Positions 4,217 through 53,484 of a DNA stretch of 64,000 nt are shown here, in pieces. Every line of letters begins with the position of its first letter. Position 1 is the stretch's first letter. Location: the NCBI GenBank assembly GCA_030390025.1, contig CM059431.1:123382001-123446000 (forward strand), given 5' to 3'. The notes below the pieces were generated by a model that saw only the letters and a list, made by a program, of their open reading frames with translations, was not told the origin of the DNA and did not search any database. Made by a program: the position numbers and the translations under genes. The stretch is from Squalus acanthias (Eukaryota).

Positions 4217-4825
4217 ACCTGTGTGGCTCCAATTGACTTCTGGTCTTATGTCCCAAGGACAGATCAAAGGATTCAGTTGAAGTCAATTAAAAAGTAAGAC
4301 CAATAGCATTATTTATATCAGTTGAAGAATGACTAATTTCCTGGCCATCCCACTCCTCTTTGTGATGCTGGAGAACGCCCTGTTCCAGTCACCAATCAAT
4401 ACGCTGCTTGATTGCACTGATTCTTGGGAGATTTTAATTTCAGGATGACGCTAATGAGTTTGCGCAGAAACTTGAGTGTAACTTCACCTCGGCAAAACCG
4501 GTGCAGTGTCCAGTGCATTCTGGGCATATTTTGTCGATTGCGACCCCAGCAGAGACTCCACGGCAATAAGTTTAATTTAAGTCAGGTGCACTTTGGGTGT
4601 AAATGGTGGAATTTCCGGGACAGCAGCTTTTAGCTTCTCTATCGGGGAAAGTGCATCTCCTGCCAGGAGTCAATTCTACTGGAACTTTAGCATGTATTTG
4701 GGAATATGTGTAACTCTGCTGTATATCACTTACACCCCAAATTCCTGTCACCTACGCCGGAACTACACCACTTTTGCAGCAGAACAAATTGGAATTTCGG
4801 GCTCCATGCTTTCACTGAGACGCAA

Positions 4826-4994
4826 GGGGTTGAATTTCCACAGGGGTTCTCCTGCTCATCCACCATAACTTCAGTGGAAGATCCGGGGAAATCCGAGAGA
4901 AATAGTGTAAACGCTGTTCAAGCCGTTTCTCCACGATTTCTGTGGATGAAGTTATGGCAGACGATTGGAAAAATCTCTGCGGAAATTCAACCCC
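4826..4994. mobile_element. MITE, Harbinger-like TIRs
   Basis: TIRs ggggttgaatttcc / ggaaattcaacccc; related copy at 38987-39100. Confidence 0.75.
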
Positions 4995-5322
4995 TATAAT
5001 GCATGAAAGCTTTATCTAAACATCCAGCCTCCATAAGAATAAAACAATTTGCTGCTGTTTGTAAATTAAAATAATGGCTGAATGAAATTAGAGGATCGGA
5101 ATTACTGATTTACCTTTCGAGACGCCTGTTTTCTTTAATTCACCGCTTATCAAGCACTTCTAATCCAAAAAACAGAGTTTGAAGAAATGTGAGGTGCAAT
5201 TAAAAAAATATTATGAGGTGCTAAATAGGATTTTATGAGACTTGTTTTTTCAAATAAAATGTTGATGGGGATGCAGTTTTTTATTTTGGTTGTAAAATTA
5301 AATTAAGAGGCCATAATTTTTT

Positions 5323-10763: not shown

Positions 10764-13700
10764 GAGGAGAGGTAGAATGGGATGTGTGAGTAGAGGTAGA
10801 ATGTGATGTGTGAGGAGAGGTAGAATGGGATGTGTGAGGAGAGGTAAATGGGATGTGAGAGGAGAGGTAGAATGGGATGTCAGAGGAGAGGTAGAATGGG
10901 ATGTGAGGAGAGGTAAAATGGGATGTGTGAGGAGAGGTAGAATGAGATGTGAGGAGAGGTAGAATGGGATGTGTGAAGAGAGGTAGAATGGGATGTGTAA
11001 GAGAGGTAGAATGGGATGTGTAAAGAAAGGTAGAATGGGATGTGTGAGGAGAGGTAGAATGGGATGTGTAAAGAAAGGTAGAATGGGATGTGTGAGGAGA
11101 GGTAGAATGGGATGTGTAAAGAAAGGTAGAATGGGATGTGTGAGGAGAGGTAGAATGGGATGTGTAAAGAAAGGTAGAATGGGATGTGTGAGGAGAGGTA
11201 GAATGGGATGTGTGAGGAGAGGTAGAATGGGATGTGTGAGGAGAGGTAGAATGGGATGTGTGAGGAGAGGTAGAATGGGATGTGTGAGAGGAGAGGTAGA
11301 ATGGGATGTGAGAGTAGAGGTAGAATGGGATGTGAGAGGAGAGGTAGAATGGGAAGTGCGAGTAGAGGTAGAATGGGATGTGAGAGGAGAGGTAGAATGG
11401 GATGTGCGAGTAGAGGTAGAATGGGATGTGAGAGGAGAGGTAGAATGGGATGTGAGTGAGGAGAGGTAGAATGGGATGGGAGGAGAGGTAGAATGTGATG
11501 TGAGAGGAGAGGTAGAATGGGATGTGAGAGGAGAGGTAGAATGAGATGTGAGAGGAGAGGTAGAATGGGATGTAAGAGGAGAGGTAGAATGGGATGTGAG
11601 AGGAGAGGTAGAATGGGATGTGAGAGGAGAGGTAGAATGGGATGTGAGAGGAGAGGTAGAATGGGATGTGTGTGAGGAGAGGTAGAATGGGATGGGAGGA
11701 GAGGTAGAATGGGATGTGAGAGGAGAGGTAGAATGGGATGGGAGGAGAGGTAGAATGGGATGTGAGAGGAGAGGTAGAATGGGATGTGAGAGGAGAGGTA
11801 GAATGGGATGTGTGAGGAGAGGTAGAATGGGATGTGTGAGGAGAGGTAGAATGGGATGTGTGTAAAGAGAGGTAGAATGGGATGTGTGTGAGGACATGTA
11901 GAATGGTACGTGTGAGGAGAGGTAGAATGGGATGTGTGAGGAGAGGTAGAATGGGATGTGTGAGGAGAGGTAGAATGGGATGTGAGAGGACAGGTAGAAT
12001 GGGATGTGTGAGGAGAGGTAGAATGGGATGTGTGAGGAGAGGTAGAATGGGATGTGAGAGGAGAGGCAGAATGGGATGTGTGTAAAGAGAGGTAGAATGG
12101 GATGTGTGTGAGGACATGTAGAATGGTACGTGTGAGGAGAGGTAGAGTGGGATGTGTGTAAAGAGAGGTAGAATGGGATGTGTGAGGAGAGGTAGAATGG
12201 GATGTGTGTAAAGAGAGGTAGAATGGGATGTGTGAGGAGAGGTAGAATGGGATGTGAGAGGAGAGGTAGAATGGGATGTGAGAGGAGAGTTAGAATGGGA
12301 TGTGAGAGGAGAGGTAGAATGGGATGTGTGAGGAGAGGTAGAATGGGATGTGAGAGGAGAGGTAGAATGGGATGTGTGAGGAGAGGTAGAATGGGATGTG
12401 AGAGGAGAGGTAGAATGGGATGTGAGAGGAGAGGTAGAATGGGATGTGTGAGGAGAGGTAGAATGGGATGTGTGAGGAGAGGTAGAATGGGATGTGAGAG
12501 GAGAGGTAGAATGGGATGTGTGTAAAGAGAGGTAGAATGGGATGTGAGAGGAGAGGTAGAATGGGATGTGAGGAGAGGTAGAATGGGATGTGAGAGGAGA
12601 GGTAGAATGGGATGTGTGAGGAGAGGTAGAATGGGATGTGAGAGGAGAGGTAGAATGGGATGTGAGAGGAGAGGTAGAATGGGATGTGCGAGTAGAGGTA
12701 GAATGGGATGTGAGAGGAGAGGTAGAATGGGATGTGAGTGAGGAGAGGTAGAATGGGATGGGAGGAGAGGTAGAATGTGATGTGAGAGGAGAGGTAGAAT
12801 GGGATGTGAGAGGAGAGGTAGAATGAGATGTGAGAGGAGAGGTAGAATGGGATGTAAGAGGAGAGGTAGAATGGGATGTGAGAGGAGAGGTAGAATGGGA
12901 TGTGAGAGGAGAGGTAGAATGGGATGTGAGAGGAGAGGTAGAATGGGATGTGAGTGAGGAGAGGTAGAATGGGATGGGAGGAGAGGTAGAATGGGATGTG
13001 AGAGGAGAGGTAGAATGGGATGGGAGGAGAGGTAGAATGGGATGTGAGAGGAGAGGTAGAATGGGATGTGAGAGGAGAGGTAGAATGGGATGTGTGAGGA
13101 GAGGTAGAATGGGATGTGTGAGGAGAGGTAGAATGGGATGTGTGTAAAGAGAGGTAGAATGGGATGTGTGTGAGGACATGTAGAATGGTACGTGTGAGGA
13201 GAGGTAGAATGGGATGTGTGAGGAGAGGTAGAATGGGATGTGTGAGGAGAGGTAGAATGGGATGTGAGAGGACAGGTAGAATGGGATGTGTGAGGAGAGG
13301 TAGAATGGGATGTGTGAGGAGAGGTAGAATGGGATGTGAGAGGAGAGGCAGAATGGGATGTGTGTAAAGAGAGGTAGAATGGGATGTGTGTGAGGACATG
13401 TAGAATGGTACGTGTGAGGAGAGGTAGAGTGGGATGTGTGTAAGAGAGGTAGAATGGGATGTGTGAGGAGAGGTAGAATGGGATGTGTGTAAGAGAGGTA
13501 GAATGGGATGTGTGAGGAGAGGTAGAATGGGATGTGAGAGGAGAGGTAGAATGGGATGTGAGAGGAGAGTTAGAATGGGATGTGAGAGGAGAGGTAGAAT
13601 GGGATGTGTGAGGAGAGGTAGAATGGGATGTGAGAGGAGAGGTAGAATGGGATGTGTGAGGAGAGGTAGAATGGGATGTGAGAGGAGAGGTAGAATGGGA

Positions 13701-16700
13701 TGTGAGAGGAGAGGTAGAATGGGATGTGTGAGGAGAGGTAGAATGGGATGTGTGAGGAGAGGTAGAATGGGATGTGAGAGGAGAGGTAGAATGGGATGTG
13801 TGTAAAGAGAGGTAGAATGGGATGTGAGAGGAGAGGTAGAATGGGATGTGAGGAGAGGTAGAATGGGATGTGAGAGGAGAGGTAGAATGGGATGTGTGAG
13901 GAGAGGTAGAATGGGATGTGAGAGGAGAGGTAGAATGGGATGTGAGAGGAGAGGTAGAATGGGATGTGTGAGGAGAGGTAGAATGGGATGTGAGGAGAGG
14001 TAGAATGGGATGTGTGAGGAGAGGTAGAATGGGATGTGTGAGGAGAGGTAGAATGGGATGTGAGAGGAGAGGTAGAATGGGATGTGAGGAGAGGTAGAAT
14101 GGGATGTGAGAGGAGAGGTAGAATGGGATGTGAGAGGAGAGGTAGAATGGGATGTTAGATGAGAGGTAGAATGGGATGTGAGAGGAGAGGTAGAATGGGA
14201 TGTGAGGAGAGGTAGAATGGGGTGTGAGAGGAGAGGTAGAATGGGATGTGAGAGGAGAGGTAGAATGGGATGTGAGAGGAGAGGTAGAATGGGATGTGAG
14301 AGGAGAGGTAGAATGGGATGTGAGAGGAGAGGTAGAATGGGATGTGAGAGTAGAGGAAGAATGGGATGTGAGGAGAGGTAGAATGGGATGTGTGAGGAGA
14401 GGTAGAATGGGATGTGAGGAGAGGTAGAATGGGATGTGAGAGGAGAGGTAGAATGGGATGTGTGAGGAGAGGTAGAATGGTACGTGTGAGGAGAGATAGA
14501 ATGGGATGTGAGAGGAGAGGTAGAATGGGATGTGTGTAAAGAGAGGTAGAATGGGATGTTTAAAGAGAGGTAGAATGGGATGTGAGGAGAGGTAGAATGG
14601 GATGTGTGAGGAGAGGTAGAATGGGATGTGTGAGGAGAGGTAGAATGGGATGTGTGAGGAGAGGAAAAATGGGATGTGAGAGGAGAGGCAGAATGGGATG
14701 TGAGAGGAGAGATAGAATGGGATGTGTGAGGAGAGGTAGAATGGGATGTGTGAGGAGAGGTACAATGGGATGTGAGAGGAGAGGTAGAATGGGATGTGAG
14801 AGGAGAGGTAGAATGGGATGTGTGAGAGGAGAGGTAGAATGGGATGTGAGAGGAGAGGTAGAATGGGATGTGAGAGGAGAGGTAGAATGGGATGTGAGAG
14901 GAGAGGTAGAATGGGATGTGAGGAGAGGTAGAATGGGATGTGAGGAGAGGTAGAATGGGATGTGAGGAGAGGTAGAATGGGATGTGAGAGGAGAGGTAGA
15001 ATGGGATGTATGAGGAGAGGTAGAATGGGATGTGAGAGGAGAGGTAGAATGGGATGTGAGAGGAGAGGTAGAATGGGATGTGTGTAAAGAGAGGTAGAAT
15101 GGGATGTGAGAGGAGAGGTAGAATGGGATGTGAGGAGAGGTAGAATGGGATGTGAGAGGAGAGGTAGAATGGGATGTGTGAGGAGAGGTAGAATGGGATG
15201 TGTGAGGAGAGGTAGAATGGGATGTGAGGAGAGGTAGAATGGGATGTGTGAGGAGAGGTAGAATGGGATGTGAAAGGAGAGGTAGAATGGGATGTGAGAG
15301 GAGAGGTAGAATGGGATGTGAGAGGAGAGGTAGAATGGGATGTGTGAGGAGAGGTAGAATGGGATGTGAGGAGAGGTAGAATGGGATGTGTGAGGAGAGG
15401 TAGAATGGGATGTGTGAGGAGAGGTAGAATGGGATGTGAGAGGAGAGGTAGAATGGGATGTGAGGAGAGGTAGAATGGGATGTGAGAGGAGAGGTAGAAT
15501 GGGATGTGAGAGGAATGGTAGAATGGGATGTTAGATGAGAGGTAGAATGGGATGTGAGAGGAGAGGTAGAATGGGATGTGAGAGGAGAGGTAGAATGGGA
15601 TGTGAGAGGAGAGGTAGAATGGGATGTGTGAGGAGAGGTAGAATGGGATGTGAGGAGAGGTAGAATGGGGTGTGAGAGGAGAGGTAGAATGGGATGTGAG
15701 AGGAGAGGTAGAATGGGATGTGAGAGGAGAGGTAGAATGGGATGTGAGAGGAGAGGTAGAATGGGATGTGAGAGGAGAGGTAGAATGGGATGTGAGAGTA
15801 GAGGAAGAATGGGATGTGAGGAGAGGTAGAATGGGATGTGTGAGGAGAGGTAGAATGGGATGTGAGGAGAGGTAGAATGGGATGTGAGAGGAGAGGTAGA
15901 ATGGGATGTGAGAGGAGAGGTAGAACGGGATGTGAGAGGAGAGGTAGAATGGGATGTGTGAGGAGAGGTAGAATGGTAAGTGTGAGGAGAGATAGAATGG
16001 GATGTGAGAGGAGAGGTAGAATGGGATGTGTGTAAAGAGAGGTAGAATGGGATGTTTAAAGAGAGGTAGAATGGGATGTGAGGAGAGGTAGAATGGGATG
16101 TGTGAGGAGAGGTAGAATGGGATGTGTGAGGAGAGGTAGAATGGGATGTGTGAGGAGAGGTAGAATGGGATGTGAGAGGAGAGGCAGAATGGGATGTGAG
16201 AGGAGAGATAGAATGGGATGTGTGAGGAGAGGTAGAATGGGATGTGTGAGGAGAGGTAGAATGGGATGTGAGAGGAGAGGTAGAATGGGATGTGAGAGGA
16301 GAGGTAGAATGGGATGTGTGAGAGGAGAGGCAGAATGGGATGTGAGAGGAGAGGTAGAATGGGATGTGAGAGGAGAGGTAGAATGGGATGTGAGGAGAGG
16401 TAGAATGGGATGTGAGGAGAGGTAGAATGGGATGTGAGGAGAGGTAGAATGGGATGTGAGAGGAGAGGTAGAATGGGATGTGTGAGGAGAGCTAGAATGG
16501 GATGTGTGAGGAGAGGTAGAATGGGATGTGAGAGGAGAGGTAGAATGGGATGTGTGAGGAGAGGTAGAATGGGATGTGAGAGGAGAGGTAGAATGGGATG
16601 TGAGAGGAGAGGTAGAATGAGATGTGAGAGGAGAGGTAGAATGGGATGTGTGAGGAGAGGAAGAATGGGATGTGTGAGGAGAGGAAGAATGGGTATGTGA

Positions 16701-16743
16701 GAGTAAAGGTAGAATGCGATGTGTGTGAGAGTAGAGCTAGCAT
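10764..16743 (+). repeat. ~6 kb minisatellite, unit ~21-25 bp (GAGGAGAGGTAGAATGGGATGT[GA/GT])
   Basis: Direct reading; + strand almost C-free; variant units recur at ~1.28 kb and ~1.4-1.5 kb spacing. Confidence 0.98.
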
Positions 16744-18180: not shown

Positions 18181-19969
18181 CATGAAAAATGCTTACTGAA
18201 CAGTGATGGTTTACAGATTAACTAGGGTAATATAATGGCTCATGTATAGCCCATTCAATTATTTACAAGTTTGGTGTATTACAATTTGAATAAATTCGAT
18301 ACACTGTATTTGTAATGGACAGAAATAACACATGTTCATACTGAGAATGTGGACCAATAAGAAACACTAAAAAGTCTGTTGTACAGTTTGTTGTCTCAAG
18401 TTTAATAGTTTCCATGTATTTCTAATAGGTTTGCAATTAGAATGATTGGGGGTTAAATTGGATAGTCCCTGAAAATGGGCGCAGGGATCGCGATGCACTA
18501 TTAACCTGCGCCCGTTGATTGCAATGCAGGCAGCACACCAACTTTGTGCTACCTGCTCATTTTAATGATTTCAGCATGCAGCCAGCGTGAACCGTGCTAT
18601 TCATTGGCTGCATCAGCAGGGGGCCCAAAATCGTAATTTGCTAGCACCAGTTAAAGCTAGCCTGCACCTCTTAAAGGGGAGGTGCATTGTGGCTGGAATA
18701 GGTGATGGCAGTTGTTCAGGAAGTGAATCTGACCTGGGAACCAGTGAAGAATGTCTCAACATGGGAGAGAGGGGGCTCCAAGGCTTTCGGAGGTTGCACT
18801 GGAGGCCTTGGTGGAAGAGGTGAAAAGTAGGAGAGATGTCCTGTATCCACAGGGGGCCAGGGAGCCCTTTAGACACACACTCAAAAGGCAATGGGAGCAG
18901 ATAGCCGTGGAGGTCAATGGAGGAGTCCAGCATCAACTTGGCACAGTGCTTTGCGCAGAGCTTGGAGCCCATCCTTTCCAGCATGGAAGTGATGACCCAC
19001 TCCATCAAGACACTTGTGGACCTGAAAGGATATTTACTAGTTCCAGCCCCTTTGGGGCTATTCCGGATCAGGCATATTTCTCAGATGTTCACTTTCAACT
19101 AAAGTTTGAGGTAGCTGAATCATCATGCTGGTGTTCATATGCCTATGCTTCACCTAGGTAAGCATGAAAAGACTAGAGAAAAGGCTGAAGGTTCGAGTGG
19201 AATCAATGGAAGCGTATCAGGCTTTACAAAGGACAAAGGACACACCCCGACAATGGTAAACAGCTTTATAGTGATCAAATCATTTGGTCAAATGATAATG
19301 ATCAAAGGGAGGAATGTGGAAATAAAATGGAAGAAGTAGTGTCTAAGTAAGAAATCTGAAATAAAATGAAGGAGTCACCATGTGTAAGAGATAGTGGGTA
19401 AATAATGATCAGCCGTGGAATGTTCTGAAACAGAGGGCTCATAGGTAAACTCATCAGACACGGGTGAGGTCACTACAGACGCCAGTTAACAAACAATGGG
19501 TCAATTGGAGAAAATGGATGAAGTAAGATGTAAACTAATCAAGGAGATGGGACAGATTGTAGAATAGGATAAACTAATCATCAGGGCGCAGACCGAACAG
19601 GAAAAAAGGAACAAATGTGTAACCAAAGAGATGGGACAGATTATAGAATAGTATAAACCAGGAGGGAACACCCCAGACAGCAGCGAGAACCTAGGAGCAA
19701 CACTCGACAGCAGGGACCTGAGGACAGAAACCCTACGTAGAGGTTTGGACAGAGACTGATCACCTTGGACCAAATCAGGTAATATCAATATAAGTTGTGA
19801 GTCTTATATTTTGGAATTTTACTTTAAATAACGAACGGTGTTTGTTAAGCATTTATTGCCTGTGTGTTTGTTCAGACCAAACTTACATTTGAACCCTAAA
19901 AGGAAAAATTGTGAACCTATTTGTTCGATCTTTCGAACATCTTGCGAATTTGGCGCAACAATTGGCGAC

Positions 19970-21121
19970 ATTCCCCTCTACGGTGGTTGACACGGCCCTC
20001 GACCGAGTCCGTTCCATCTCCCGCACTTCTGCCCTCACACCTGCCCCTCCCTCCCGGAACCACGATAGGGTTCCCCTTGTCCTCACCTTTCACCCCACCA
20101 GCCTCCACATTCAGCGGATCATCCTCCACCATTTCCGTCACCTCCAGCGTGATCTCACCACCAAACGCTTCTTCCCCTCACCTCCCCTTTCAGCATTCCG
20201 TAGGGACCTGCTCCCTCCGCGACACTCTAGTCCACTCCTCTATCAACCCCAGCTCCCCTTCCCCTTCGCCCGGCACCTTCCCGTGCAAGTACAGGAGATG
20301 CAACACATGCCCTTATACCTCCCCCCTCCCCACTGTCCAGGGCCTCAAACACCCCTTCCAGGTGAAACAGCGATTTACTTGTACTTCTTGCAATTTAGTA
20401 TACTGTATTCGCTGCTCACGATGTGGTCTCCGCTACATTGGGGAAACCAGACGCAGATTGGGTGACCGCTTTGCGGAACACCTCCGTTCAGTCCGTAAGG
20501 GGGACCCCGAGCTCCCGGTGGCCTGTCACTTTAATTCACCGCTTCACTCCCACTCTGACCTCACCGTCCTCGGCCTCTTGCATTGTTCCACGGAAGCTCA
20601 GCATAAGCTCGAGGAACAGCACCTCATCTTTCGATTAGGCACTCTACAGCCCTCTGGACTCCACATAGAGTTCAACAATTTCAGATCATAACCTCGGCCC
20701 CTTATCACATATATATATATATATATAATATTTTTTATCCACACTTTTTGTTTGGCTCTTCTTTTCTTCCCTCCCACATGGCAGTTGTCCTTCATTCTAC
20801 CAGCGTAATTCACACTTCATCTAGAGCCATCCTTTGTTCCTTAACCTGTCCCATTACCACCTCCTCTTGCCTTGAATATCTCTTAATGTCTCTCAATGTC
20901 TCTTAATCTCTCCTGCTTTCTATCCTATCACTGGCCTTCCCTTTTGTTCTTTCATCCCCTCCCCCATTTCTCAGCCCTGAAACCTGTTTTAAAATTTAGT
21001 CCATTTCCTGCTTTTTTCCAGTTCTGATGAAAGGTCTTCGACCTGAAACGTTAACTCTGTTTCTCTCTCCACGGTTGCTGCCTGGCCTGCTGAGTTTTTC
21101 CAGCGTTTTCTGTTGTTATTT
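19970..21121 (+). mobile_element. Penelope-like element 3' part (GIY-YIG endonuclease, 3' pLTR)
   Basis: CNTC..FTCTSCNLVYCIRCSRCGLRYIGETRRRLGDRFAEH..PVACHFN..EEQHLIFRLGTLQPSGL; one frameshift near 20210; hammerhead in the 3' region. Confidence 0.95.
21020..21056 (+). ncRNA. Minimal hammerhead ribozyme motif (family B)
   Basis: AGTT CTGATGA A AGGTC TTC GACCT GAAACGTT AACT: intact core, stems I and II, palindromic stem III AACGTT. Confidence 0.85.
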
Positions 21122-24100
21122 CCTCAAGACGCTTAACTGGGTCTAAAGGTCCGGGCTATCTCTCCCAAAAGGAAAGGTACAACCCGAGAATGTTATCGTC
21201 CTCCACATAGCAATTTTAATAAGTTTAGCTGGACTGTAACGTCCCGGATATTATGAGAGTCTGGAGATCTCCTTCAGAAATGTAACTCTTCACCAAAGAG
21301 TGTACAGAGATTGAGTTCGTGAGTTATTGATACAGAAGACTTATGTGAGACAATTCTAAAAATATATAGAGATTTATTAAAGAACCGACATGCAATTTAC
21401 AGTTGGTGAATCAGTCAATTGCAGCATTAACAGTTCTAAAAAGAGAAAAAATACAATCTTTTTAACAGAGAATCAACTTCGCTACAGTATTACAGTTCTT
21501 AAAGTTTTCCATACAGGATATCCATCAATATCAAAATACCTTTGATCCCCGAGGTACAAAGAGTGGAAGACCACAGAGCCGCCTCTGTAGATGAGAATCG
21601 CCTTGCCCGATTAAAGCGACTCTGATATCCCATTTGAGACTTCAATATTGATACCCTTTTTCAGTTGTATTCCTTAAGGTTTCTGCTGACCCAAGTTAAT
21701 TATCACTATTCATCTTTCTGCTGACCTCTGCAATTCTTTACTGCCACATCAGCTTGTAATATTCGAGAATCTGCCGCATCTCCAGGTGTTCTGGGTTCAC
21801 CATATAAAAGGTGTGAAAGGCAGGTGTCCCTTATTTTATGTGTCATCTTTACGAGGGCAGATGTTCCTTATCTTATGTGCCATCTTTACAAAATTTAATT
21901 TATATCACATATCCAGGGTTCACCATTGTTTTGTTCCCAAAAGATCAGCCACTCGGAAGCATCCCATTCTTCTGATTCAATAAGGTTATTTATTCAAGGT
22001 CAACAACTTGTCCTGTTTCAATAGCCAGAATTCTTTCATAGCTATTTCATAGTTAGGTTTTTAAATTTCCAAACCTGTTTGTCATGTTTTAAAGAATTTA
22101 TAAGTTAGAGTTCCTTACAAGGTACTCTTCAGGGTCACCCACTGTCTTATCTCAACAAGGCCAGAATTCTTTCATAAGATTGTGTATTTTTCTAAAAAGG
22201 CAAAATTGTATATTCCTTCACAGACCCAACCATGATGCAGCATCTGATGGCCAATGTCGCAACTTCCACTGCAGCACAAGCAGCAGCCACCCAATGTCTG
22301 AGTGCTGCAGTGGTAGCTCAGACTGCTGCCATGCAAGCTCAGACTGCTGCCATCGTGGTTGTGGATTACAGTGTTCAAAGGGGCTTGCACGGTGTCACAG
22401 CAGTCCAGCAATCTGTCCTCCAACAAATTACTAGGATTGCTGAGGTGCCACACAGGGAGAGTGGCAGTGGCTCCATGGAGCACGAACCTGGTGTACTCTC
22501 TCAGGATGATAGCATTTGTTCTCCCACCATAGCCACGATGCCAGTGCCCTTGCTGTTGCCTGTCAGCCAGTCCAGACTGCTGCCGTCCATGCTGAGATGG
22601 TGCAGTCCGCAGCCGGGTCTTCTAGGCCCAGAGCTGCTCGAGGTCATCCTCCAAGGCCATCTACAGTGTCCTCCACTGAAAGTCAGCAGCCTTCCATCGG
22701 CCATGCTGCACTACTGGGGTAGAACTGTATAGGAGTACTAGGACAGGCAAAGGAACATGGAAGACAGGCACCAAGGGAATGCACAAGGATGATTAGTTTA
22801 TGTTTGTATGCAATATAGCAATAAGAGAATAGCGTAGCTGGGGAGATGGTGCAGGAGGGAGGGCTTTAGATTCCTGAGGCATTGGGACTAGTTCTGGGGT
22901 GGTCGGACCTATACAAGCCGGAGAGGTTGCACCTCAACAGGGCCGGGAGCAATATGCTCGCTGAGGGTGGGGTTGCAGGGGGGTGTGGCAGGTGGGGTTT
23001 GCTAGTGCTGTTGGGGAGGGTTTAAACTAGCTTGGCGGGGGATGGGAACCTGAGTGTAGATTCAAAAGGGAGAGAAGCAAAGCTGGAAATGGAAGGCAGA
23101 AAATTAGTAAGCGAGTTTGGAAGACAGAGGAAACAAAGACTAGAAAATAGACAACAAAGGAGTTTGGCAGTGCTTAATGGTACATACTTCAACTGCAAGG
23201 AGTCTTGTGAATAAGGCAGATGAGCTGAGGGCACAGATAGACACGTGGGAGTATGATATTATAGCTATTACTGAAACATAGCTTAAAGAAGGGCAGGAAT
23301 GGCAGCTCAACATTCCTGGTTACATGGCTTTAAGATGAGAGAGAGGGGATAAAAAAGGAGGTAGGGTCGCAATATTGGTTAAAGAAACAATTACAGCTGT
23401 GAGGAGGGATGATATGTTAGAAGGTTCATCAAATGAGGCCATATGGGTTGAACTGAAAACAAAAAAGGGTAAATCACACTGCTGGAATGTACTATAGAAC
23501 CCCAAACAGTCAGAAGGAGATAGAAGAGCAATATGTAAGCAAATTTCTGAGAAGTGCAAAAACAATACGGCAGCAATAGACAGGGATTTCAACTACCCTA
23601 ATATTAACTGGGATAGAATCAGTGTAAAAGGTAGAGAGGGCGCAGAATTCTTAAAATGCATTCTGGAGAAGTTTTTTAGCAATACCTAGCAAGCCTAACA
23701 AGAGAGGGGGCGGTTCTGGACTTAGTTTTAGGGGATGAAGCTGGGCAGGTGGAAGAGGTATCAGTGGAAGAGCATTTTGGTGATAGTGATCATAATTCAG
23801 TTAGATTAAGCGTAGTTATGGAAAAGGACAAAGATAGATCAGGAGTAAAAGTTCTCAATTGGGGAAAGGCCAATTTTACTAAGCTGAGCTTTAATTTAGC
23901 AAAAGTGGACTGGAAACAGTTACTTGAAGGTTATTCAGTGTCAAAGAAGTGGGAGGCATTCAATAAGGAGATTCAAGGAGGGTTCAGAGAAAATATGTTC
24001 CCACAAAGAAAAAGGGTGGGACTCTCAAATCTAGGGCCCCCTGGATGTCAAAGAGCATACAGGTTAGGAAAAGGCAACAAAGGGAAGCTTATGTCAGATA

Positions 24101-25386
24101 CCGAGAGCTCAATACTGCAAGAAGCCTAGAGGAGTATGGAAAGTGCAGGGGTAAAATTAAAAAGGAAATTAGGAAAGCAAAGAGAGGGCACGAAAAAATA
24201 TCGGCAAGGAAAACCAAAAGATGTTTTATAAATACATAAAGAGCAAGAGGATAACTAAGGTAAGAGTAGGGCCTATTAGAGACCTTTGTGTGGAGGCGGA
24301 AGGCGTGGGTACAGTTCTTAATGAATACTTTGCGTCTGACTTCATAAAAGATAGGGATGCTGCAGACAATTTATTCAAGTAGGAAGATTGTTAAATACTA
24401 GATGGAATACACATAGTGAGAGACAAAATATTAAGGGGTTTAGCATCTTTGAAAGTATATAAATCACCAGGCCCGGATGAAATGTATCCCAGGCTGTAAG
24501 GGAAGCAAGGGAGGAAATAGCGGAGGCTCTGACCTTCATTTTCCAATCCTCTCTGGCTACAGGCATGGTGCTGGAGGACTGGAGGACTGCTAACGTTGTA
24601 CCTTTGTTTAAAAAGAGAGAAAGGGATAGACTGAGTAATTACTGGCCTTTCATTCTAACCTCGGTGGTGGGCAAATTAGGCAAAAATTCTGAGGGACAGC
24701 ATTAATCGTCATTTAGAATGGCACAGATTAATCAAGGACAGTCAGCATAGACTTGTTAAGGGAAAGTCGTGTCTGACTAACTTGATTGAATTTTTTGAAG
24801 AAGTAACAAGGAGGGTCGATGAGGGTAGTGTGTTTGAGGTAGTCTACATGGATTTTAGCAAGGTTTTTGACAAGGTCCCATATGGCAGACTGCTCAGAAA
24901 AGTAAAAGCCCATGGGATCCAAGGGAAAGTGGCAAGTTGGATCCAAAATTGCCTCAGTGGCAGGAAGCAAAGGGTAATGGGTGGCGGGTGTTTTTGTAAC
25001 TGGAAGGCTGTTTCCAGTGGGGTTCTGCAGGGCTCAGTACTAGGTCCCTTGCTTTTTGTGGTGTATATCAATGATTTAGACTTCAATGTAGGGGGCATGA
25101 TTAAGAAGTTTGCAGATGAAACAAAAATTGGCCAGATGGTTGATTGTGAGGAAGAAAGTTGTAGACTGCAGGAAGATATCAATGGACTGGTCAGGTGAAC
25201 AGAAAAGTGGCAAATGGAATTCAATCCGGAGAAGTGTGAGGTAATGTATTCGGGGCGGGATAACAAGGCAAGGCAACACACAATAAATGGTAGGATACTG
25301 AGAAGTGTAGAGAAACAGAGGGACCTTGGAGTTCATGTCCACAGATCACTGAAGGTAGCAGGACAGGTAGGTAAGGCTTTATTAAC

Positions 25387-25712
25387 AGAATTGAGAGGTC
25401 GCACAACACCAGGTTATAGTCCAACAGTTTTATTTGAAATCACAAGCTTTCGGAGCTATCGATTGCTCCTTCCTCAGGTGAAGTAAATTAGATACAGAAT
25501 CGCCAAAGCATATATAGATAGAAAACAAAGCATGTGTACCTTATGTGTGTGCTTTGGCGATTCTGTATCTAATTTACTTCACCTGAGGAAGGAGCAATCG
25601 ATAGCTCCGAAAGCTTGTGATTTCAAATAAAACTGTTGGACTATAACCTGGTGTTGTGCGACCTCTCAATTTTGTCCACCCCAGTCCAACACCGGCATCT
25701 CCGCATCATGAC
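25387..25712. mobile_element. Foldback Penelope-derived mini-element with hammerhead motifs on both strands
   Basis: Perfect 122-bp inverted arms 25389-25510 / 25550-25671; 10-bp TSD CTTTATTAAC (25377-86, 25713-22). Confidence 0.9.
25579..25620 (+). ncRNA. Minimal hammerhead ribozyme motif (family A); mirror copy on the - strand at 25440-25481
   Basis: TCAC CTGAGGA A GGAGC AATCGATA GCTCC GAAAGCTT GTGA. Confidence 0.8.
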
Positions 25713-26085
25713 CTTTATTAACTGAGGCATAGAATATAAGACGAGTGAGGTTATGCTAGAACTGTATAAAAGACTAGTTAGGCCACAGCTAGTACTGCGT
25801 ACAGTTCTGATCACCACATTGTAGGAAAGATGTGATTGCACTAGAGAGGGTACCAAGGAGATTTACAAGGATGTTGCCAGGACTGGAGAATTTTAGCTAA
25901 GAGAAAAGATTGGATAGGCTGGGGTTATTTTCTTTGGAGCAGAGGAGGCTGAGGCGAGATTTAATTGAGGTGTATAAAATTATAAGGGTCCTATATAGAG
26001 TGGATAGGAAGCACCTATTTCCCTTGACAGAGGTCAATAACCAGGGGGCAAGGATTTAAAGTAATTGGTAGAAGGATTCGAGGGG

Positions 26086-26720
26086 AGTTGCACACCAGCT
26101 GGATGTTGTGGGTGTAGAATCCGTTTCTGTTCCAGTCCATGACAGAGTTGACATGCGGACCCCACAAAGTGATGTACGTGCAGTCAATGGCACCCTGCTT
26201 CATGGCGAAACCTGCAATCTTAGCAATGCCGTGTGCTTGCTTCACCTGCTGGTCTCTGGCAAGAGAGATTGAAATGTAATCAGCTCTCTTTGAATAGAGA
26301 GCCTCAGTGACCTCCCTTACACAACAGTGGACGGCAAACTGCGAGATGTTGCAAATATCTCCAGCTTCAGCCTGGAAGGAGCCTGACGCATAATCGTTCA
26401 TAGCCATGGTCACCTTCACAGTCACTGGCAATGTGGTCGTTGCCTTGCTCTAAGGTTGGAGCTGTGGCTGCAGCAGATGACAGATTTCAGTGAGGACGCC
26501 CTTATTGCAGTGCAGTTGTCTCACACACTGTTCCTGACTGAGGTTCAGGTAGGAGAATTGCTCCCTGAACACCCTGTGCGGATATGGCCTTCTGCTGAGA
26601 GCCCTTCTCCCCCTCCTCCTCCTCCCTCTTCTAGCAGCTTGCCCTGCTCTGTGACACCTCTGCTCATTCTCCCAGTCATGCCGTATTCCAAGGGAAATGC
26701 TTACTAATGCACCCATGTCT
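26086..26720 (-). pseudogene. Harbinger (HARBI1-like) transposase N-terminal half
   Basis: YASGSFQ..GDICNISQFAVH..GAIDCTYI..NRNGFYTHNIQLVC; truncated by the CR1 insertion. Confidence 0.9.
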
Positions 26721-36779: not shown

Positions 36780-37996
36780 TATATATTTAAATTGAACAAA
36801 ACCTTGCATCGTGTTTTCTTTCTACAGGATTATGTTTTCCTAATTGCAGGCCTTATAAGATGGTAGACCGCTTGTCAGACATAACAAAAGTCAAAGCATG
36901 TTGGAGCAAAGCCTCTTATATCTTGTATAAGGTTACACACCAGGTGGTTTCTTCTTGATCCAACTGCTGGTCCAGCATATTATAGATGTCAGCAAAGAAG
37001 GTATTAATCTATAAGATCCAAGTATGAAGCTCAAACATGGAAGCTACTCAGATAGCAGCCTCCATCCTGCTCAATCTCTTTGCTGTCAAAATATGCATGG
37101 TGACCCTAATGTGCTGCTGTTCCACTATCCTGTTTCATAGCAGGCCCACTAATAACTGAATCTGACCATACCTTTCTTTGGGTCTCAGGCCGAGGGCCTT
37201 TACAACCCCTCATTGGCTTCTGCAAACCACTTTCAGATAATGGGGGTTCGAACATCTGCTCCTCTGCTGATGATTCACTAGGTTGTGGAAGTGTAGGTGG
37301 GTCTGTTTCTGTGTTAAGATAAAAATATTATAAAGGAAGAATGCTGCAGGCTGATCAGCATATGAAAAGAAAAAAACAGGTTCATGTTCTGGGCGTAGGC
37401 TCTGCCTCAGAACTCCCAGAGAAGGATCTATAAAACATTAACCTAGCTTATCTCTTTTCAGGTGCTAACAGAGCTATTGGGTATATTTCCAACATTTTCG
37501 GTTTTTATTTCAGATCTTGAGCATTTACAATTCCTCTTTTTTATCTCTTCTGTTTCTATGCTGGCAATGCACTGCAGGCAATGTTACCTCATTTCATACA
37601 TAGCTACTTATTTCAATCAAGTCTATTCAGGAAGTATTTAAAAAAAAATCAAAATCATCTTATCGCTGCTGCAATATGATTGTGAAATGAAGGACCAAAT
37701 CTTTACAATGGTTGAATTGAGCTATAAGAGGGCAATTCAGACAGTTACATTGCTCTCATCAAATAACATCTAAAACTATCACTGGTCCCACAATACATTG
37801 TCAGACCAGTGCCAGTTGCAATACTTCTATCTTTTAAATGGATCTTCCATAGATGGTCAATTTGTCCTTGTATTTTTCTTTAAACTGCTGTTTCCCAGTA
37901 ATTTTCCTGGGTAGCCAGGAAAATGAAGTCAATTTTTGATATTAATAGTGGTGCATATGCTTTTTTATAAGATGTTGAGGTTTGTGAAAAGAGTAA

Positions 37997-38181
37997 GGAG
38001 GTAAAATCTGTCTTGGGCGGTAGCGCTAACTGTCGATAGCGAATCGGCAGCCCGTTTTACACCCTGCTTGATCTTCTTTTCCCTTGAAGTCAATGTAAAC
38101 GAAACTCAAGTGGTGTGTAAAATGGGCAGCCTCCCTGCAACCGCCTGTTTTGCTCTACCGCCCAATATGAATTTTACCCCC
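37997..38181. mobile_element. PIF/Harbinger MITE
   Basis: TIRs ggaggtaaaat / attttaccccc, internally palindromic, flanked by a TAA TSD. Confidence 0.8.
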
Positions 38182-38986
38182 TAAATCTCCTTACTCTAGT
38201 AATTTCAAATAGAATTATTACAAAAGCACATAATCAGGTCTGAAACATGAAACAGAAAAGGTAACATGTCAAAATAGCAATTAAAAAAAGCATATTATAT
38301 AGATTATTTTACAACAGAACCTAGTTGGATGCACAGTCTCATAGTAATTAAAGACCTGTCATGAGATTGGTACATTTTGACAATGCCCTCAAGCACTTAA
38401 AGTTGCAGCAATGCTCCTCAATCTTGATGAGGGTTTCATGTCATGAAGTAAAGTATTTGGATGTCTGCTTTAAAGCAACTCTCGTATTTTATTTTTGTTC
38501 AGCTTTGCTGAGAAAGCAATCCATTCCCATGTGCCAGGACAAATGTCCCTGAAGTCAGCTTGGAGAACAAAGCATATTGAGGTGTGCTTGTGTTTCTACG
38601 ATTTTTCAATTCCATGAGCATTGAATTATTTTTCATCCAGTATCATCCAGAATATATACAGTGATGCTTCATGCTTCAATTGCCCTCTGATTATGTCTGT
38701 CTTATGAAACAAGAAACTGTTCAGCCATCTTGTTGCTTGACAGTTCTCATTAACACTTAACAATTTAAAAATATCTATATAGATTGCACCCCAAAGTTTA
38801 TGAGAGTAAACCTGCTTTGCAAGATGCATCACAAAAACTTTCAACCAAGTCAGAAAGGTGGAAATGCCTTTTCTCATTTACCTCTTGTTCAGAATGAAGA
38901 GCTAGTTCCAGTACATCTCCATACATGCTCCCGCTGGAGGCCACCTCCCCACCAATCTCTATGAGTATAGAACAGTGGACAAGTAT

Positions 38987-41480: not shown

Positions 41481-43171
41481 TGATTGGGCTTGTTAAGCCC
41501 ACCCAGCCTGTTTCCCGGCCAATTGAAGGAAGCGGGTCTGATGACGTCACTTAATGACGCGTCATCAACTGGTTTCCTTAAAGGACCATGCCCAAATTGA
41601 TTTTGACAGTTGTGCTGTCAGTGTTCTACAGCATTGAGGTGCTGCAAACACTGACAAGCACAGAGGTGCACGGCTGCACCCAGTCTCTCCCATGACTCCC
41701 TCCATATGCTTATGGAGGGAGTCATAGCACGCAGGGAGGTTCTCTTCCTTCCACTGGGCGGAAGACACCTCCCCAGGAGACCAACGCAGCCTGGTTGCAC
41801 ATTTCACAGGAAGACACAAGCAGGGATGTCATCAGGAGGACCAGGCTGCAGTGGCACAAACCTTTCAATGATCTCAGTAGATCACGAAACGTAACTGCAA
41901 AGCCACACTCAGCCTCATCCTACTGTGCCACCCATCACATCCCATCATCTGCCTTCCCTACCCTACTCCGGCACATCCTTACTCACACCAACTTACCTTG
42001 CACCTCCACCCATCTCTGTCTATCTACATTATCACTTCCCCATCTCACTAGCCACCCCTCACACTCACCCTCATCCTAGTCCAATCATATCAACTAACAA
42101 CACACAAGGGTAGGCACTTGTGTGTTTTAGCCAATGTTCATGTGAAGTTTCTGTTAATGTGCTGTCAAACATTGAAATCTTTATTTTCAACACTTTGTGT
42201 TCAAGGACAAATTTGTGTGCACTTTTGGAAGTGGCTTAGTGAGTTGTAGTGAATGGTTAGACATAACGGTACCCCCCGCAATGGCGATGAGTGTGAAAGG
42301 AATGGCTTGGGCATTGTAGGGATGCTTGCTGGTGTTGGTGTGGGATGGTGCCAACCTGTCGCACCATGTGGCAGCCAGGGTGTACAGCAGTAAGTGAAGT
42401 AAATGTGGCCATGGTGAGGATATCCCTGGCGTCCCGGGCAGCAATTTGGCCGGGTGCTGATGCCCTGTGTCATGTGCAGCACCAGCTTATTGCGGAGAAG
42501 GTTGGTGTTGTTGTTGGTGCTGCTGGTGTGCCTGGTGCTGGTGTGCCTGGTGACGTTGGTGTTGGGGCTGATCATGGTGGGATTCTGAGGGCCAAGGTGA
42601 GATTTTTTTCAAGGGCACTGATGCTGATTGAATAGATGGCAGGTGAGGTTGAGATGACAGAAGCGATCTGTCAATGGTGAGAGAGTTTGTTCCAATGAGG
42701 TGACACTGGATAGTAAGTTTGCTCCAAACACTTGCAAGTTGCATAAAGCTCAATCTGTGTTCCAAATGCAGTAAGCAACAGCTTCTGAGCTTGGAAAGTG
42801 AAGTCTATGAAATGGGAGCTTTTATAGACCATTTTCAGTTGTCAAGTTAAGAAATCATCACGTGCTGACACAAGACCCGACCTCCTTACCTGACGTGATC
42901 CCCGAACAGCGGGGAAGCTGTTGGCGAACTCTAAAAATCTAAAGATAAGCTTAAAATAATACTTAATTGCCTCTTAACAATCCAGCTAATGATCTAAATT
43001 GCCTCCCCTGCCGCTTGGTGTCAGGTCTGTTGTGCGATGACAGACCCGACATCTGGGAGACTAACGTGGAGGCGGGTTGACAGCAGGTTCCCGACCCGCT
43101 GTCAAAAAAAAACATTTTCCCAGCTGACCCGCCTCCGAATGCGCCCCCTAACCCCCCAAAAAATTCTGGCC
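41481..43171 (+). mobile_element. Non-autonomous Harbinger family B, copy 1 (5' truncated)
   Basis: Collinear with 53485-55233. Confidence 0.85.
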
Positions 43172-43401
43172 ATAAATTCAGATAGTAGTCAGATACTATC
43201 TTAATTACACAAAATGTAGTGTAAAATAGTAAAATATTCTGTCACTAAATGAACAAAATGATTCATCGATCGATTACATGTTGTACTGAAAATCTACGTG
43301 GCTCGAGTCTGAGGTGCCTCCGATGCGAGAGGTGTTCTCTTTTTAGTGTGCTGAGTACGGGAGCCCGAGGCTTCGCAAGGCCTGAACTATAATCACTTTC
43401 C

Positions 43402-43544
43402 CTGGAGTCCTTGTGCTCAGGATCCACTTCTGTGTCGAAGACAGCGATGAGAACTCCCCTGCCGTCGTACTTTGGGTAGCGGGAGAGGAAGAGGCAGCAC
43501 TGACCTCTTTCTTCAGTGAAGTTGTTATGGAGGTGAGCAGCCAC
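43402..43544 (-). pseudogene. TPP2: Decayed copy of tripeptidyl peptidase II exon 1
   Basis: [32 protein letters not shown]/AQGLQ versus vertebrate TPP2 [39 protein letters not shown] (recalled from memory); GTG at the start position, two frameshifts, donor degraded to ggaaag. Confidence 0.88.
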
Positions 43545-43877
43545 GACTCGGCTGCAAAATGGAGAGGACATATTCGAGTACGCAGAGCGTTCTGGGTACG
43601 GACGTCCATCATTGGGGCCCAGATTCGCGGAACAGATCCTTTTAAGATTGGGCCAGGGAGAATCGCTTTTGTGAATTATTAATTTGAATTAAGTATTACT
43701 ATGTTTTTTCCTCGGCTGCAGTTCAGATCTGTCTCTAACCCACGAGAAGTGAAAGTGGATAGACTAATGTGCAGCTCGAGTTCTGGCTTGCGTTCTATTT
43801 CTGTCCCATCCCACGGGCTGAGTAGAATTAATTGGTGGGCTGGATACAGCCCGCAGGCCGTATTTTACCCACCACTG

Positions 43878-44226
43878 GGGTAGATGCTGGGAAGATGTTT
43901 CCCCTGGCTGGGGGGTCTAGAACTCGGAGTCACAGTCTCAGAACAAGGGGTCGGCCATTTAGGACTGAGATGAGGAAAAATATCTTCACTCAGTGGGTGG
44001 TGAATCTTTAGAATTCTCTACCCCAGAGGGCTGTGGATGCTCAGTCATTGAGTATATTCAAAACAGAGAGCGATAGATTTTTGAAGACTAAGGGAATCAA
44101 GGGATATGGGGATAGTGCGGGAAGGTGGAGATGAGGTAGAAGACCAGCCATGATCTTATTGAATGGGAGAGCAGGCTCAAAGGGCCAAATGGCCTACTCC
44201 TGCTCCTATTTCTTATGTTCTTATGG
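43878..44226 (+). mobile_element. CR1 3' end
   Basis: Similar to 3865-4216; tail TTCTTATG x2. Confidence 0.9.
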
Positions 44227-45320
44227 AACAGTTTGTCAGCACACCATCCAAACTCATCTCCTAATAAATACGTATGAATTTCACTTTTAATAATTAGCAA
44301 CGTGGATTAAGATAGGGTGGTTTGACTAATGGGAATTCATTCTCTATATAATTGCACAATTTTTTTGTTGAAAATATCAATAGCTACCACTTAACTTCAG
44401 CTCCATATGTGTTCTTCATCTCTATATCAAATCAGGATGATTTCTGGCATTGAAATCTATTTATTTATCTCTGTCAGTATTTTTTTCTGAAAATCTCTGT
44501 AACTAACTCATAAGTTTATTTCAATACCTGTCCAGTCTTTCTACTTCACGATAATATTTTTGCCTTATCTCAATGCTCTTTAACAAATTACAAGAGTTCT
44601 TCCAAACTTCTGTTCAACTCCTCACAGTTGTCAAGCCTAGCCTGATAGGCTCCATGTCCCATAGCCAAGCTCTTTTTCTCCACAGCATGTCAGTGGACTA
44701 TTTTGCTTGACCAGTAAGGTCTGTCCATTTCTCCATTACACAATCCAGAAAGACCTCAGTTGGATATTCAGCTAAGTAAGCTTTATGGATTTGCCACTGA
44801 GCCTTTATGCTAAGGTTTTGCACACACCACAGCAGGATTAATTAAATTAAATATTTGTCATTTACGCTGGCTAAATGGATCATTAGCTGTTTGAAAAGTA
44901 TGAAATGAACATTAATACACATGAATCATCTTTGGCCGATAACAATTTTTTGTTGCATGAAATTAACCATAGCAAAATTACACTCACCACCATTTTAATG
45001 ATAGGGTCATTCAATCTATGGAAATCAGGGCATATTTTGAAAATAGACAAATATATGCTTCTTAATTTGCATCCTCTGGTATTTGAATCCTTGACCATAG
45101 CAAACAATATGTATGGATTGAGTTTATTAATCCTCTTCAGGATCTTAATACTCTCCTCTTTTTTCAAAATTTCCTTTTTTATTCATTTTCGGGATCTGGG
45201 CAATACTAGCAAGGCTACATTTATTGCCTATCCCTAGTTGCACCCTTCAAATTTCATAAATGCCATCACTGAAAGCTTTGTAAGCATCATTTGCAACAAG
45301 ATATGTAATATCACATAGAA

Positions 45321-45502
45321 GGGGTAATTTTGACTGTTTGTGATAGTGTAAAATGGGCGATATCGGATCAGCCGTCCGTTATACATCTCTCCCGATATTC
45401 ATTTCCATTGAAGACAATGATAATGAAAATCGTGAGAGATATACAATGGGGGCTGATCTGATTTTGCCCATTTTACATTATCGCACAAAGTCAAAATTAC
45501 CC
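45321..45502. mobile_element. Palindromic MITE
   Basis: gggtaattttgact / agtcaaaattaccc; the whole element folds back. Confidence 0.8.
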
Positions 45503-45674
45503 TCAGTGTGTCTGAAACAGATGCAAAGTTCAGCCTTTCATAGCATTGCGTTTCCAGGATGTGCTCCAAATTGCAGCTTTGTGGTTTATTCCAACTTTCT
45601 CTTTTCTGAATGCGGTGATTCACGTTAGATGGTAGCAGCCTTTTAGGTCTCAACCTTGTTACTATCCTTCACGT

Positions 45675-46068
45675 GTCAGCTGTGGCTCAGTGGGTAGCGC
45701 ACTTGCTTTTGAGTCAGAAGGTTGAGGGTTCAAATCTCACGCAGTCTTTCGGATGAGATGTTAAATCGAGGCCCTGTCTGCTCTCTCAGGTGAATGTAAA
45801 AGATCCCATGGCACTATTTTGAAGAAGAGCAGGGGAATAATCCCCAGTGTCCTGGCCAATATTTATCCCTCAATCAACATAACAAAAACAGATTATCTGG
45901 TCATTATCACATTGCTGTTTGTGGGACCTTGCTGTGTGCAAATTGGCTGCATCGTTTCCCACATTACAACAGTGACTACACTTCAAAAGTACTTCATTGG
46001 CTGTAAAGCGCTTTGAGACATCCGGTGGTTGTGAAAGGTGCTATATAAATGCATGTCTTTCTTTCTTT
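45675..46068 (+). mobile_element. tRNA-derived DeuSINE (SacSINE1-like)
   Basis: A box tggctcagtggg, B box gttcaaatc; Deu-like core (ggatgagatgttaaatcgaggccc..aagatcccatggcactatttt); L2-like tail gctatataaatgca. Confidence 0.85.
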
Positions 46069-46441
46069 TATGTGATCCTAAATCCTAGATAGGCAATTTA
46101 TTATGAGGAGCATCTGAGTAGAGATGGATGTCTACACAATTCATGTCCATACATATTCTCTGCCCAACAAGAGTTGCTGGACATGAATCAGAAGCAGGAA
46201 CACTAGCGTTTTATTCTCTTTCCGGCTCTGGAGAATCTGAGGCTAGTAATAGTGCCTTAACATTCTTCCAGATAAGAACAGCTAACTTAGAGAAGAATGG
46301 CCATTGAACCTGACAGCTTAGTAGCTCACTAGGCAGTGTATTACTCACCAGGTCACGAAAGGAGTTATTGAGGTTTCTGTTTACTAATTTTTATTTAGTT
46401 TATACTAGACCCTGTACATGTCCCCATGTATATCATGATTC

Positions 46442-48189
46442 TGCCTGGAATTTTGCCGGCCCTCAGCGGGCGGGATGGATGGTGGGTCAGCTGTTAAATT
46501 GAAAATGATTGACAGTGGGTGAGGAACACGCTGTCAAACGTGCACACTGGACTTTCCCAATGTCGGGTCTGCTGGCGCTGAGCAGACCCAACACGCAGCG
46601 GCGGGGGAGGCAATTAAAATCATTAGTGGCTTGTTTACAGCCACTTAACAATGCTTTTTCACAGCTTTTTGAATTTGACAGGTCGCCCATCAATTTCCCG
46701 CTGTGCCTAGACCTCGTCAGTGAAGCTGAGGCGGGAGGTCAGTGGCCATTGAATCAGCTGATGAGTTCACAGTTTCAAATGTCAAGTCAAAGCTCCCAGC
46801 TGATTGAGATATGTTCCCTTAACCACTAGATTCTCTCAACTGCATTTCCACTACAGATTCAGAATGCTGCAAGTCTTTACACAAGTCTCCATCCAGTCTG
46901 ACCTCATTACCTCTCCCACCATTGACAGATCGTTTCTGTCATCTCTACTTCACCTGTCATCTATTCCAGCAGCATCAGAGCACTTTATACTCTATTATCT
47001 TGGTCCTCAGAATCCCACCACGATCAACCGAACACCAGCATCACCAGGCACACCAACATCATCAGGCACACAAGCAGCACCAACAACACCTACCTTCTCC
47101 ACAATCAACAGATGCTGCACAGGACACAGTGCATCAGTACCTGACCACATTGCTGCCCAGGATGCCAGGGATGGCCTCAACATGGCCAGATTTACTTCAC
47201 TTGATGCTGTACACCCTGGCTGCCACATGATGCACCAGGTTGGCACCACCCCACACTAACACCAAAAGCATCCCTACAATATCCAAGCCATTCCTTTCAC
47301 ACTCATCAGTATTGTGGGGGTAACCGTTATATCTCACCATTCACTTCAACTCACTAAGCCACTTCCAAAGGTGCACACAAATCTGTCCAAGAACGCAAAG
47401 TGTTGAAAATAAAGATTTCAATGTTTGACAGCACATTAACAGAAACTTCACATGAACATTGGCTAAAACACATAAGTGCCGACCCTTGTGTGTTGTTAGT
47501 TTGTATGATTGGACAAGGATGAGGGTGAGTGTGAGGGGTGGCTAGTGAGATGGGGAAGTGATAATGTATTTAGAGAGGGATGGGTGGAGGCAGAAGGTAA
47601 GTTGGTGTGAGTAAGGATGTGCCGGAGTAGGGTAGGGAAGGCAGATGATGGGGATGTGATGAGTGGCACAGCAGGAAGAGGTTGTGTGTGGGTATGCAGT
47701 ATTGTTTCGTGATTTACTGAGATCATTGAAAGGTTTGCGCCACTGCAGCCTGGTACTCCTGACGACATCCCTGCTTGTGTCCTCCTGTGCAATGTGCAAC
47801 CAGGCTGCGTTGGTCTCCTGAGGAGGTCTCTTCCACCCATTGGAAGGGAAGAGAACCCCCCTGCATATGGAGGGAGTCATGGGAGAGCCTGGGTGCAGCC
47901 CTGCACCTTTGTGCAGTGCTTGTCAGTGTTTGCAGCTCCTCAATGCTGTAGAACACTGACAGCACAAATGTCAAAAGAAAGTTGCGCATGGTCCCTTTAA
48001 GGAAACCGGCTGATGACGTGTCATCAAATGACGTTATCAGATGCGCTTCCTTCAATTGGCTGGGAAACTCGCTGGAAGGGCTTAACAAGCTCAATCAATG
48101 GAAAGTCATTTCGGAGGCCAGGGTGGAGACAGGAGCAGTGCCAGGACCCGCCACTGACGTCACCTGCCGAGGTCGGGAAAATCACAGCC
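46442..48189 (-). mobile_element. Non-autonomous Harbinger family B, copy 2 (inverted)
   Basis: Reverse-complement similarity to 53485-55233; TIR-like ends. Confidence 0.85.
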
Positions 48190-53014: not shown

Positions 53015-53059
53015 AATGTTTCATTAGAAAGTTTTGGAAAGAACAGCTTTTAAGCACTA

Positions 53060-53473: not shown

Positions 53474-53484
53474 TACTACTATCT

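Follow-up and report, generated by a model that had tools for sequence, protein, structure and literature searches.

Is the 326-bp fold-back insert in the genome of Squalus acanthias, which carries a hammerhead ribozyme motif on each strand, a single truncated insertion of a Penelope-like element (PLE), or is it a copy of a non-coding, ribozyme-bearing mobile family that makes a long hairpin RNA? Both possibilities had been raised in a preliminary description of the 64,000-nucleotide stretch of DNA analysed here (the window). We conclude that the insert is very probably a recent, heavily 5'-truncated, head-to-head insertion of an abundant Penelope-like family, and a dead-end product rather than a mobile ribozyme RNA. 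It is a well-preserved example of a kind already described, the short head-to-head PLE insertion; taken singly, the locus is of little importance, being another PLE stump, and its value is that of a clean specimen.

The lengths given in the preliminary description (122-bp arms, 39-bp spacer, 41-bp tail and 326 bp in all) were reproduced exactly on recomputation. The insert occupies 25387-25712, and a script search found the arms at 25389-25510 and 25550-25671 to be reverse complements over 122/122 bp with no mismatch, leaving a centre of 39 bp (25511-25549) between them. The locus is composed of the following features:

24500-26090, plus strand: host, the decayed reverse transcriptase (RT) region of a LINE, split by the insert (Pfam RVT_1, E 3e-14)
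25377-25386, plus strand: left copy of the target-site duplication (TSD), 10 bp, AT-rich and including ATT
25387-25543, minus strand: inverted copy of the PLE 3' end without the tail, 157 nt, consisting of the arm 25389-25510 and, upstream of it, about 33 nt of parent sequence (25511-25543), whose extent is suggested by contigs
25440-25481, minus strand: minimal type I hammerhead by structural descriptor, sense on the minus strand
25544-25549, no strand: putative head-to-head joint with a 6-nt filler, suggested by public contigs
25550-25671, plus strand: direct copy of the PLE 3' end (122-bp arm), found by script as an inverted repeat
25579-25620, plus strand: minimal type I hammerhead by structural descriptor, fitting the published consensus
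25672-25712, plus strand: PLE tail, 41 bp, on one end only and AC-rich, with the sole sense ATG of arm and tail at 25708
25713-25722, plus strand: right copy of the TSD, matching the left copy

The perfect 10-bp TSD claimed earlier is likewise present: the 10-mer CTTTATTAAC stands at 25377-25386 and at 25713-25722, identical at 10/10 bp, and CTTTATTAAC occurs nowhere else on either strand of the window. With zero differences over 122 bp, the divergence of the arms is below 2.4% (95% bound); unless their likeness is maintained by conversion, the insertion is recent. No tandem array was found at the locus.

The host had been called an old CR1. A decayed LINE RT part is confirmed by the RVT_1 match, with several stops and frameshifts and a reading frame that resumes to the right of the insert; its motifs suggest the CR1 type. 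Compared with both intact paralogues in the window (2/2), the host lacks 28 bp flush against the left TSD copy (25376|25377), a deletion that is not accounted for by the insertion route proposed below and counts against it. An empty allele was not found among the contigs listed, where the reference comprised one arm and the right flank only.

This anatomy resembles that reported for PLE insertions. In the portions of the literature available to us, an inverted 5'-truncated copy is described beside the element, with a tail of 30-40 bp on one end (Craig et al. 2021, PMC8557442), and such inserts are stated to carry TSDs of 8, 9 or 10 bp, with head-to-head as the usual arrangement (Arkhipova et al. 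2013, PMC3846280). What the insert shares with insertions of EN+ PLEs in these two accounts is the outward-facing, head-to-head, inverted 5'-truncated copy, the tail on one end, the short TSD (8-10 bp) in an AT-rich target and, at this locus, a hammerhead in the terminal repeat. The preliminary statement that PLEs carry minimal hammerheads and often insert with an inverted terminal copy is in keeping with what these sources and the available part of PMC4209133 report. The differences are that here neither copy contains an open reading frame and both are only about 160 nt long; that the 41-bp tail lies at the upper edge of the published 30-40 bp (PMC8557442); and that the centre appears to be parent sequence plus filler instead of a perfect palindrome.

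Contigs of four public runs (of 23 listed, 20 covering part of the stretch and none covering half of it) were compared with 25505-26200 at 90% likeness, in bins 24 nt wide; 15 of the 40 joints and 20 of the 822 loose ends were listed. In organism A, summed contig depth, which is not equal to copy number, ran into the millions over the arm and tail, compared with 6-31 for single-copy contigs, and division by the 31 overlapping words still left hundreds to thousands. These data indicate that the insert's family is very abundant in organism A. Raw reads of organism H amounted to nine, all on the arm and tail, and were too few to use. The arm was also sought by exact pattern scans of metagenome, prokaryote-genome and viral collections; these gave 0 matches, the outcome to be expected of a repeat from an animal, and are uninformative either way.

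The same contigs reveal where copies of the family end. All 11 distinct 3' end points among those listed fell either at 25662-25675 (five) or at 25705-25714 (six), with none between; the sample comprises 15 of 40 joints and 12 of 21 entries of a second table, and is confined to copies lying in LINEs that resemble the flank. A go-back joint within the arm (25660 to 25617) was excluded, and one of the 11 points counted is a go-back joint in the tail. These two clusters, about 40 nt apart, are the tail-less and tailed ends of the family. Together with the anatomy and the hammerhead, the contig ends support the first of the two original alternatives, a Penelope insertion that was truncated and carries a terminal copy in inverted orientation.

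The ends also bear on two explanations that do not involve a PLE, a class II fold-back or MITE element and an assembly artefact in the form of a palindromic misjoin. The long, perfect terminal inverted repeats and the 10-bp TSD of the insert resemble those of Mutator and Foldback elements, and a misjoin would yield perfect arms. Against a class II element stand the asymmetric ends, with a 41-bp tail on one side, and the fact that arms occur solo (638-719) and bear the minimal hammerhead; a misjoin would produce neither a TSD that splits the host reading frame nor a tail in keeping with both end clusters of the family. We regard this pair of explanations as extremely unlikely.

If the insert is a PLE insertion, the question becomes whether its centre was made once for this locus or is shared by a family of copies. 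The 39-bp spacer of the preliminary description is correct in length, and the contigs indicate that most of it is probably not a spacer at all. Along the minus-strand parent path the summed depth drops smoothly, from 858k to 787k and 413k in X1 and from 394k to 268k and 181k in X3, and 21 contigs of X3 (X3 only, among those listed) track the reference as far as 25543 and then run on into a single different sequence (agreement 0.86). This is most simply read as the left arm and 33 nt of the centre forming one piece of the parent on the minus strand. With 33 of the 39 bases belonging to the parent sequence, the true joint would be 25543|25550, bridged by a 6-nt filler. ATGTGT at 25543 repeats 25532-25537, and the filler, TGTGTG at 25544-25549, differs from the TATATA of the parent by three A-to-G changes. 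A local duplication of ATGTGT was considered to explain TGTGTG as well as an A-to-I edited template would; the other 122 nt carry no such change.

The alternative is a non-autonomous hairpin family, in which one early fold-back would now be copied as a 326-bp unit, with a shared joint, by a PLE protein that recognises the outward ends. The entire centre is highly repeated in organism A, with a summed depth of 412,503-787,025 in X1 and 181,267-268,005 in X3 against 6-31 for single-copy contigs, and is absent from organisms B and H. The depth of the inner arm is about twice that of bin 25529-25552 (2.1 in X1 and 2.2 in X3), as such a family would have it. It is also reported, in the available parts of the sources, that pLTR sequences by themselves suffice to mobilise cargo in trans (PMC3846280) and that non-autonomous PLEs exist (PMC8557442). 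However, the 21 X3 contigs leave the reference at 25543 for another sequence, and in the first bin of the centre the depth is 1.5-1.9 times that of the second, whereas a fixed unit should give both bins the same depth. A second copy of the centre was found neither in the window nor in other indexed windows, the latter by a weak 13-word look-up; a 13-bp match at 28211 (E 0.71) was judged to be chance. In four other joints, 25525 or 25528 is connected to the arm at 25572, 25596, 25607 or 25642, at depths of 12-33 and with short fillers in three cases. If the centre is parent sequence, these are other head-to-head joints; alternatively, they retain the left part of the centre and can be central deletions of a fixed hairpin. 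A read-through RNA would moreover be a 130-bp duplex that buries the arm, and the second fold-back in the window, described below, has a quite different joint. Taken together, a fixed-junction ribozyme hairpin family, the second of the original alternatives, is unsupported, with the exit at 25543 and the four other break points as some evidence against it, and we consider this explanation unlikely. In the literature covered, with most subscription papers, Repbase and Dfam outside that coverage, neither a fixed-junction PLE hairpin family nor a shark case was found; if true, this reading would describe a new non-autonomous form of PLE. A related proposal, that the 326-bp hairpin is itself the transposition unit, a non-coding, fixed-junction PLE parasite copied from a long double-stranded RNA hairpin whose hammerheads are kept off by their antisense copies until the PLE protein opens it, is improbable as well; if true, it would make the hairpin a source of long double-stranded RNA against its own parent family.

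A second PLE family in the same window allows the head-to-head insertion to be compared with another of its kind. A 5'-truncated remnant of this family lies at 19915-21122 on the plus strand, where a GIY-YIG-like frame ends at 20691 and is followed by the terminal repeat, with a hammerhead at 21020-21056, about 330 bp beyond the GIY-YIG remnant. The Pfam match of this frame (E 8e-4) fails the cut-off, and its first Atlas hits fall in GIY-YIG clusters at 0.96. The link to GIY-YIG is known for this second family only, and the family of the 326-bp insert would be a PLE by virtue of its motif and anatomy. Further solo ends of the second family occur at 58186-58289 (minus strand) and 37433-37514. 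Its fold-back, a head-to-head insert of 216 bp at 56470-56685 (56459-56696 with TSDs), lies between 11-bp TSD copies that differ at one position; it is extended by 28 bp at the left end only, is unequally truncated and carries a minimal hammerhead at 56582-56618. Its arms differ at 6 of 81 positions, and it is older than the 326-bp insert. Stumps of this kind have thus been left by two PLE families within 64 kb, and short fold-backs seem to be common here.

The two fold-backs agree in their geometry. The pieces of the 326-bp insert measure 157 nt on the left and 163 nt on the right, which places the joint at the midpoint (25549.5); those of the second fold-back measure 110 and 104 nt, and in both the joint lies about 6 bp or less from the midpoint (25543-25550 and 56579-56582). 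In both (2/2) the tail-less copy extends further 5' by about one tail length. Among the four other contig joints, in which the outer ends are not covered, balanced arm lengths were seen in just one.

How such an insert arises is stated to be an open matter for PLE inverted copies in the available parts of PMC8557442 and PMC3846280. We propose a route in three steps. An RT/GIY-YIG protein, encoded by an intact copy at another locus, would nick each strand of an AT-rich site, with the nicks 10 nt apart; the TSD is observed, and the nicking is suggested by the work of Frangieh et al. (2024, PMC11167929), who, in the available portion of their article, found both strands to be nicked and extended in vitro by a PLE of Anolis carolinensis. 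Reverse transcription would then start at two internal sites of the family, the outer one giving the tailed copy and the inner one the tail-less copy. This step agrees with the two clusters of 3' ends in the contigs; such start sites have been demonstrated in vitro only for the anole element, in which reverse transcription begins at two adjacent internal sites whose spacing equals the tail (PMC11167929). Finally, both copies would stop after about 160 nt and be joined head to head at 25543|25550 via the 6-nt filler. That anole element, PAc, which is of the Poseidon type, would share with the insert two RT starts spaced by the tail, an AC-rich start region, nicking of both strands, a preference for ATT and a hammerhead that is dispensable in vitro, insertion having been independent of hammerhead cleavage. 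These features of PAc were observed in vitro and in another element, and the origin of the inverted copy is left unexplained in the available text of PMC11167929.

Two versions of this route differ in the number of cDNAs. We give slightly better than even chances to two separately primed cDNAs, and slightly less than even chances to one snap-back cDNA that was later trimmed. The joint at the midpoint in both fold-backs of the window fits two cDNAs primed from opposite nicks. In the snap-back version, one cDNA would prime itself, an idea present in the part of PMC3846280 available to us, and one tail would be lost to trimming by a nuclease; the centre can pair over 6 bp more with three G-T wobbles, which is compatible with this version. 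If the midpoint joint and the offset of one tail length prove regular genome-wide, this would speak for two cDNAs, primed in step at opposite nicks, rather than for snap-back.

The hammerheads themselves are complete. The structural descriptor (core, helix II of at least 4 bp, GAAA, UH and helix I of 4 bp) confirmed one motif in each arm and on each strand, as had been claimed, and matched four times in the 64-kb window, twice within the insert and twice in the second family, against 0 matches in each of 30 shuffled windows. On the plus strand the motif has helix I UCAC/GUGA, a core CUGAGGA with one extra A, helix II GGAGC/GCUCC and GAAA; palindromic AGCU replaces helix III, and cleavage is predicted after CUU at 25616. 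The insert thus has the core, the extra base at 9/10.1, the G10.1-C11.1 pair, the palindromic helix III, an NUH site and helix I of a minimal PLE hammerhead. With the motifs of Cervera and De la Pena (2014, PMC4209133), as far as the available text and supplement show them, it shares CUGANGA with the extra base, G10.1-C11.1, a 4-bp helix I, a palindrome for helix III and a U-rich 5' flank; its G-C-U-U at helix III and the cut site is also listed there for one turtle motif and one rotifer motif. Unlike those motifs, helix II here is 5 bp long with an 8-nt loop, which marks a subfamily of organism A, and cartilaginous fish are absent from the table and alignment in the available part of that supplement. 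Pairs of minimal hammerheads on opposite strands, 100-700 bp apart, are reported there for Schistosoma. Loop II (25596-25603) contains the palindrome AUCGAU, and in a predicted two-copy co-fold pairing runs through helix II and loop II, not helix III. The hammerhead is absent among the 14 Rfam matches to the insert at E <= 10, and the miRNA-type matches among them were rejected as generic hairpin models with scores below the gathering thresholds.

The fold is kept across the family, with covariation. A solo tail-less copy at 638-719 (plus strand), around which no TSD of 6-10 bp was found, is 87% identical to the 122-bp arm over 86 columns and carries compensatory changes in helix I (C-G to U-A) and helix II (A-U to G-U). 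In loose-end consensuses from coded organisms A and B, a helix II pair is swapped from C-G to G-C, and loop II takes three different forms.

These observations raise a further possibility, that the locus is a functional ribozyme or retrozyme giving self-cleaving or circular RNA from either strand. In its favour, both motifs are intact, their fold is kept in the family, and a motif on its own is predicted to fold, with a probability of 0.81-0.87 for helix I and 0.99 for helix II. The whole insert is predicted to behave quite differently. It folds as a single hairpin of -245.2 kcal/mol (z = -31.9; 0 of 100 shuffles equally stable), and in the full transcript of either strand the predicted pairing probability of helices I and II is 0.0000. 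Forcing these helices in the full RNA gives -173.9 instead of -245.2 kcal/mol, a penalty of about 71 kcal/mol. Both motifs face outward, so that transcription of either strand passes through the antisense copy before it reaches the single sense hammerhead, and a second same-strand motif that could serve as a dimer partner is absent nearby. In the available part of PMC4209133 the minimal PLE hammerhead is thought to act as a dimer, and the monomer tested did not cleave; the motif here, with the palindrome AGCU alone for helix III, is of this dimer type. The earlier suggestion of competition between the hairpin and ribozyme folding is thus upheld and, according to these predictions, understated: the hammerheads at the 326-bp locus would be masked by the hairpin in read-through RNA.

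Non-LTR retrozymes, as described in the available part of a preprint (bioRxiv 10.64898/2026.07.22.740005), are, like the insert, short, non-coding and PLE-derived, with a type I hammerhead. Animal retrozymes are arranged as head-to-tail tandems in which at least two hammerheads lie on the same strand, whereas the insert is head to head with one per strand, and an arrangement of the retrozyme kind was not seen at the locus. A functional ribozyme or retrozyme is accordingly very unlikely in our assessment. In the preferred reading, a truncated head-to-head PLE insertion, the hammerheads are likely to be carried along with the terminal repeat, maintained in the family by selection but masked by the hairpin at this locus.

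Other repeats in the window deserve brief mention. Short imperfect inverted repeats of other families, with arms of 31-52 bp and no descriptor match for a hammerhead, occur at 4825-4995, 37990-38188, 45322-45502 and 53053-53480. A large diverged inverted repeat spans 41747-47847 in several blocks that are 79-93% complementary, with arms 4-6 kb apart, and a tandem array at 10764-16725 consists of 249 copies of a 24-bp purine-rich unit, with 91% matches and a GC skew near 1.
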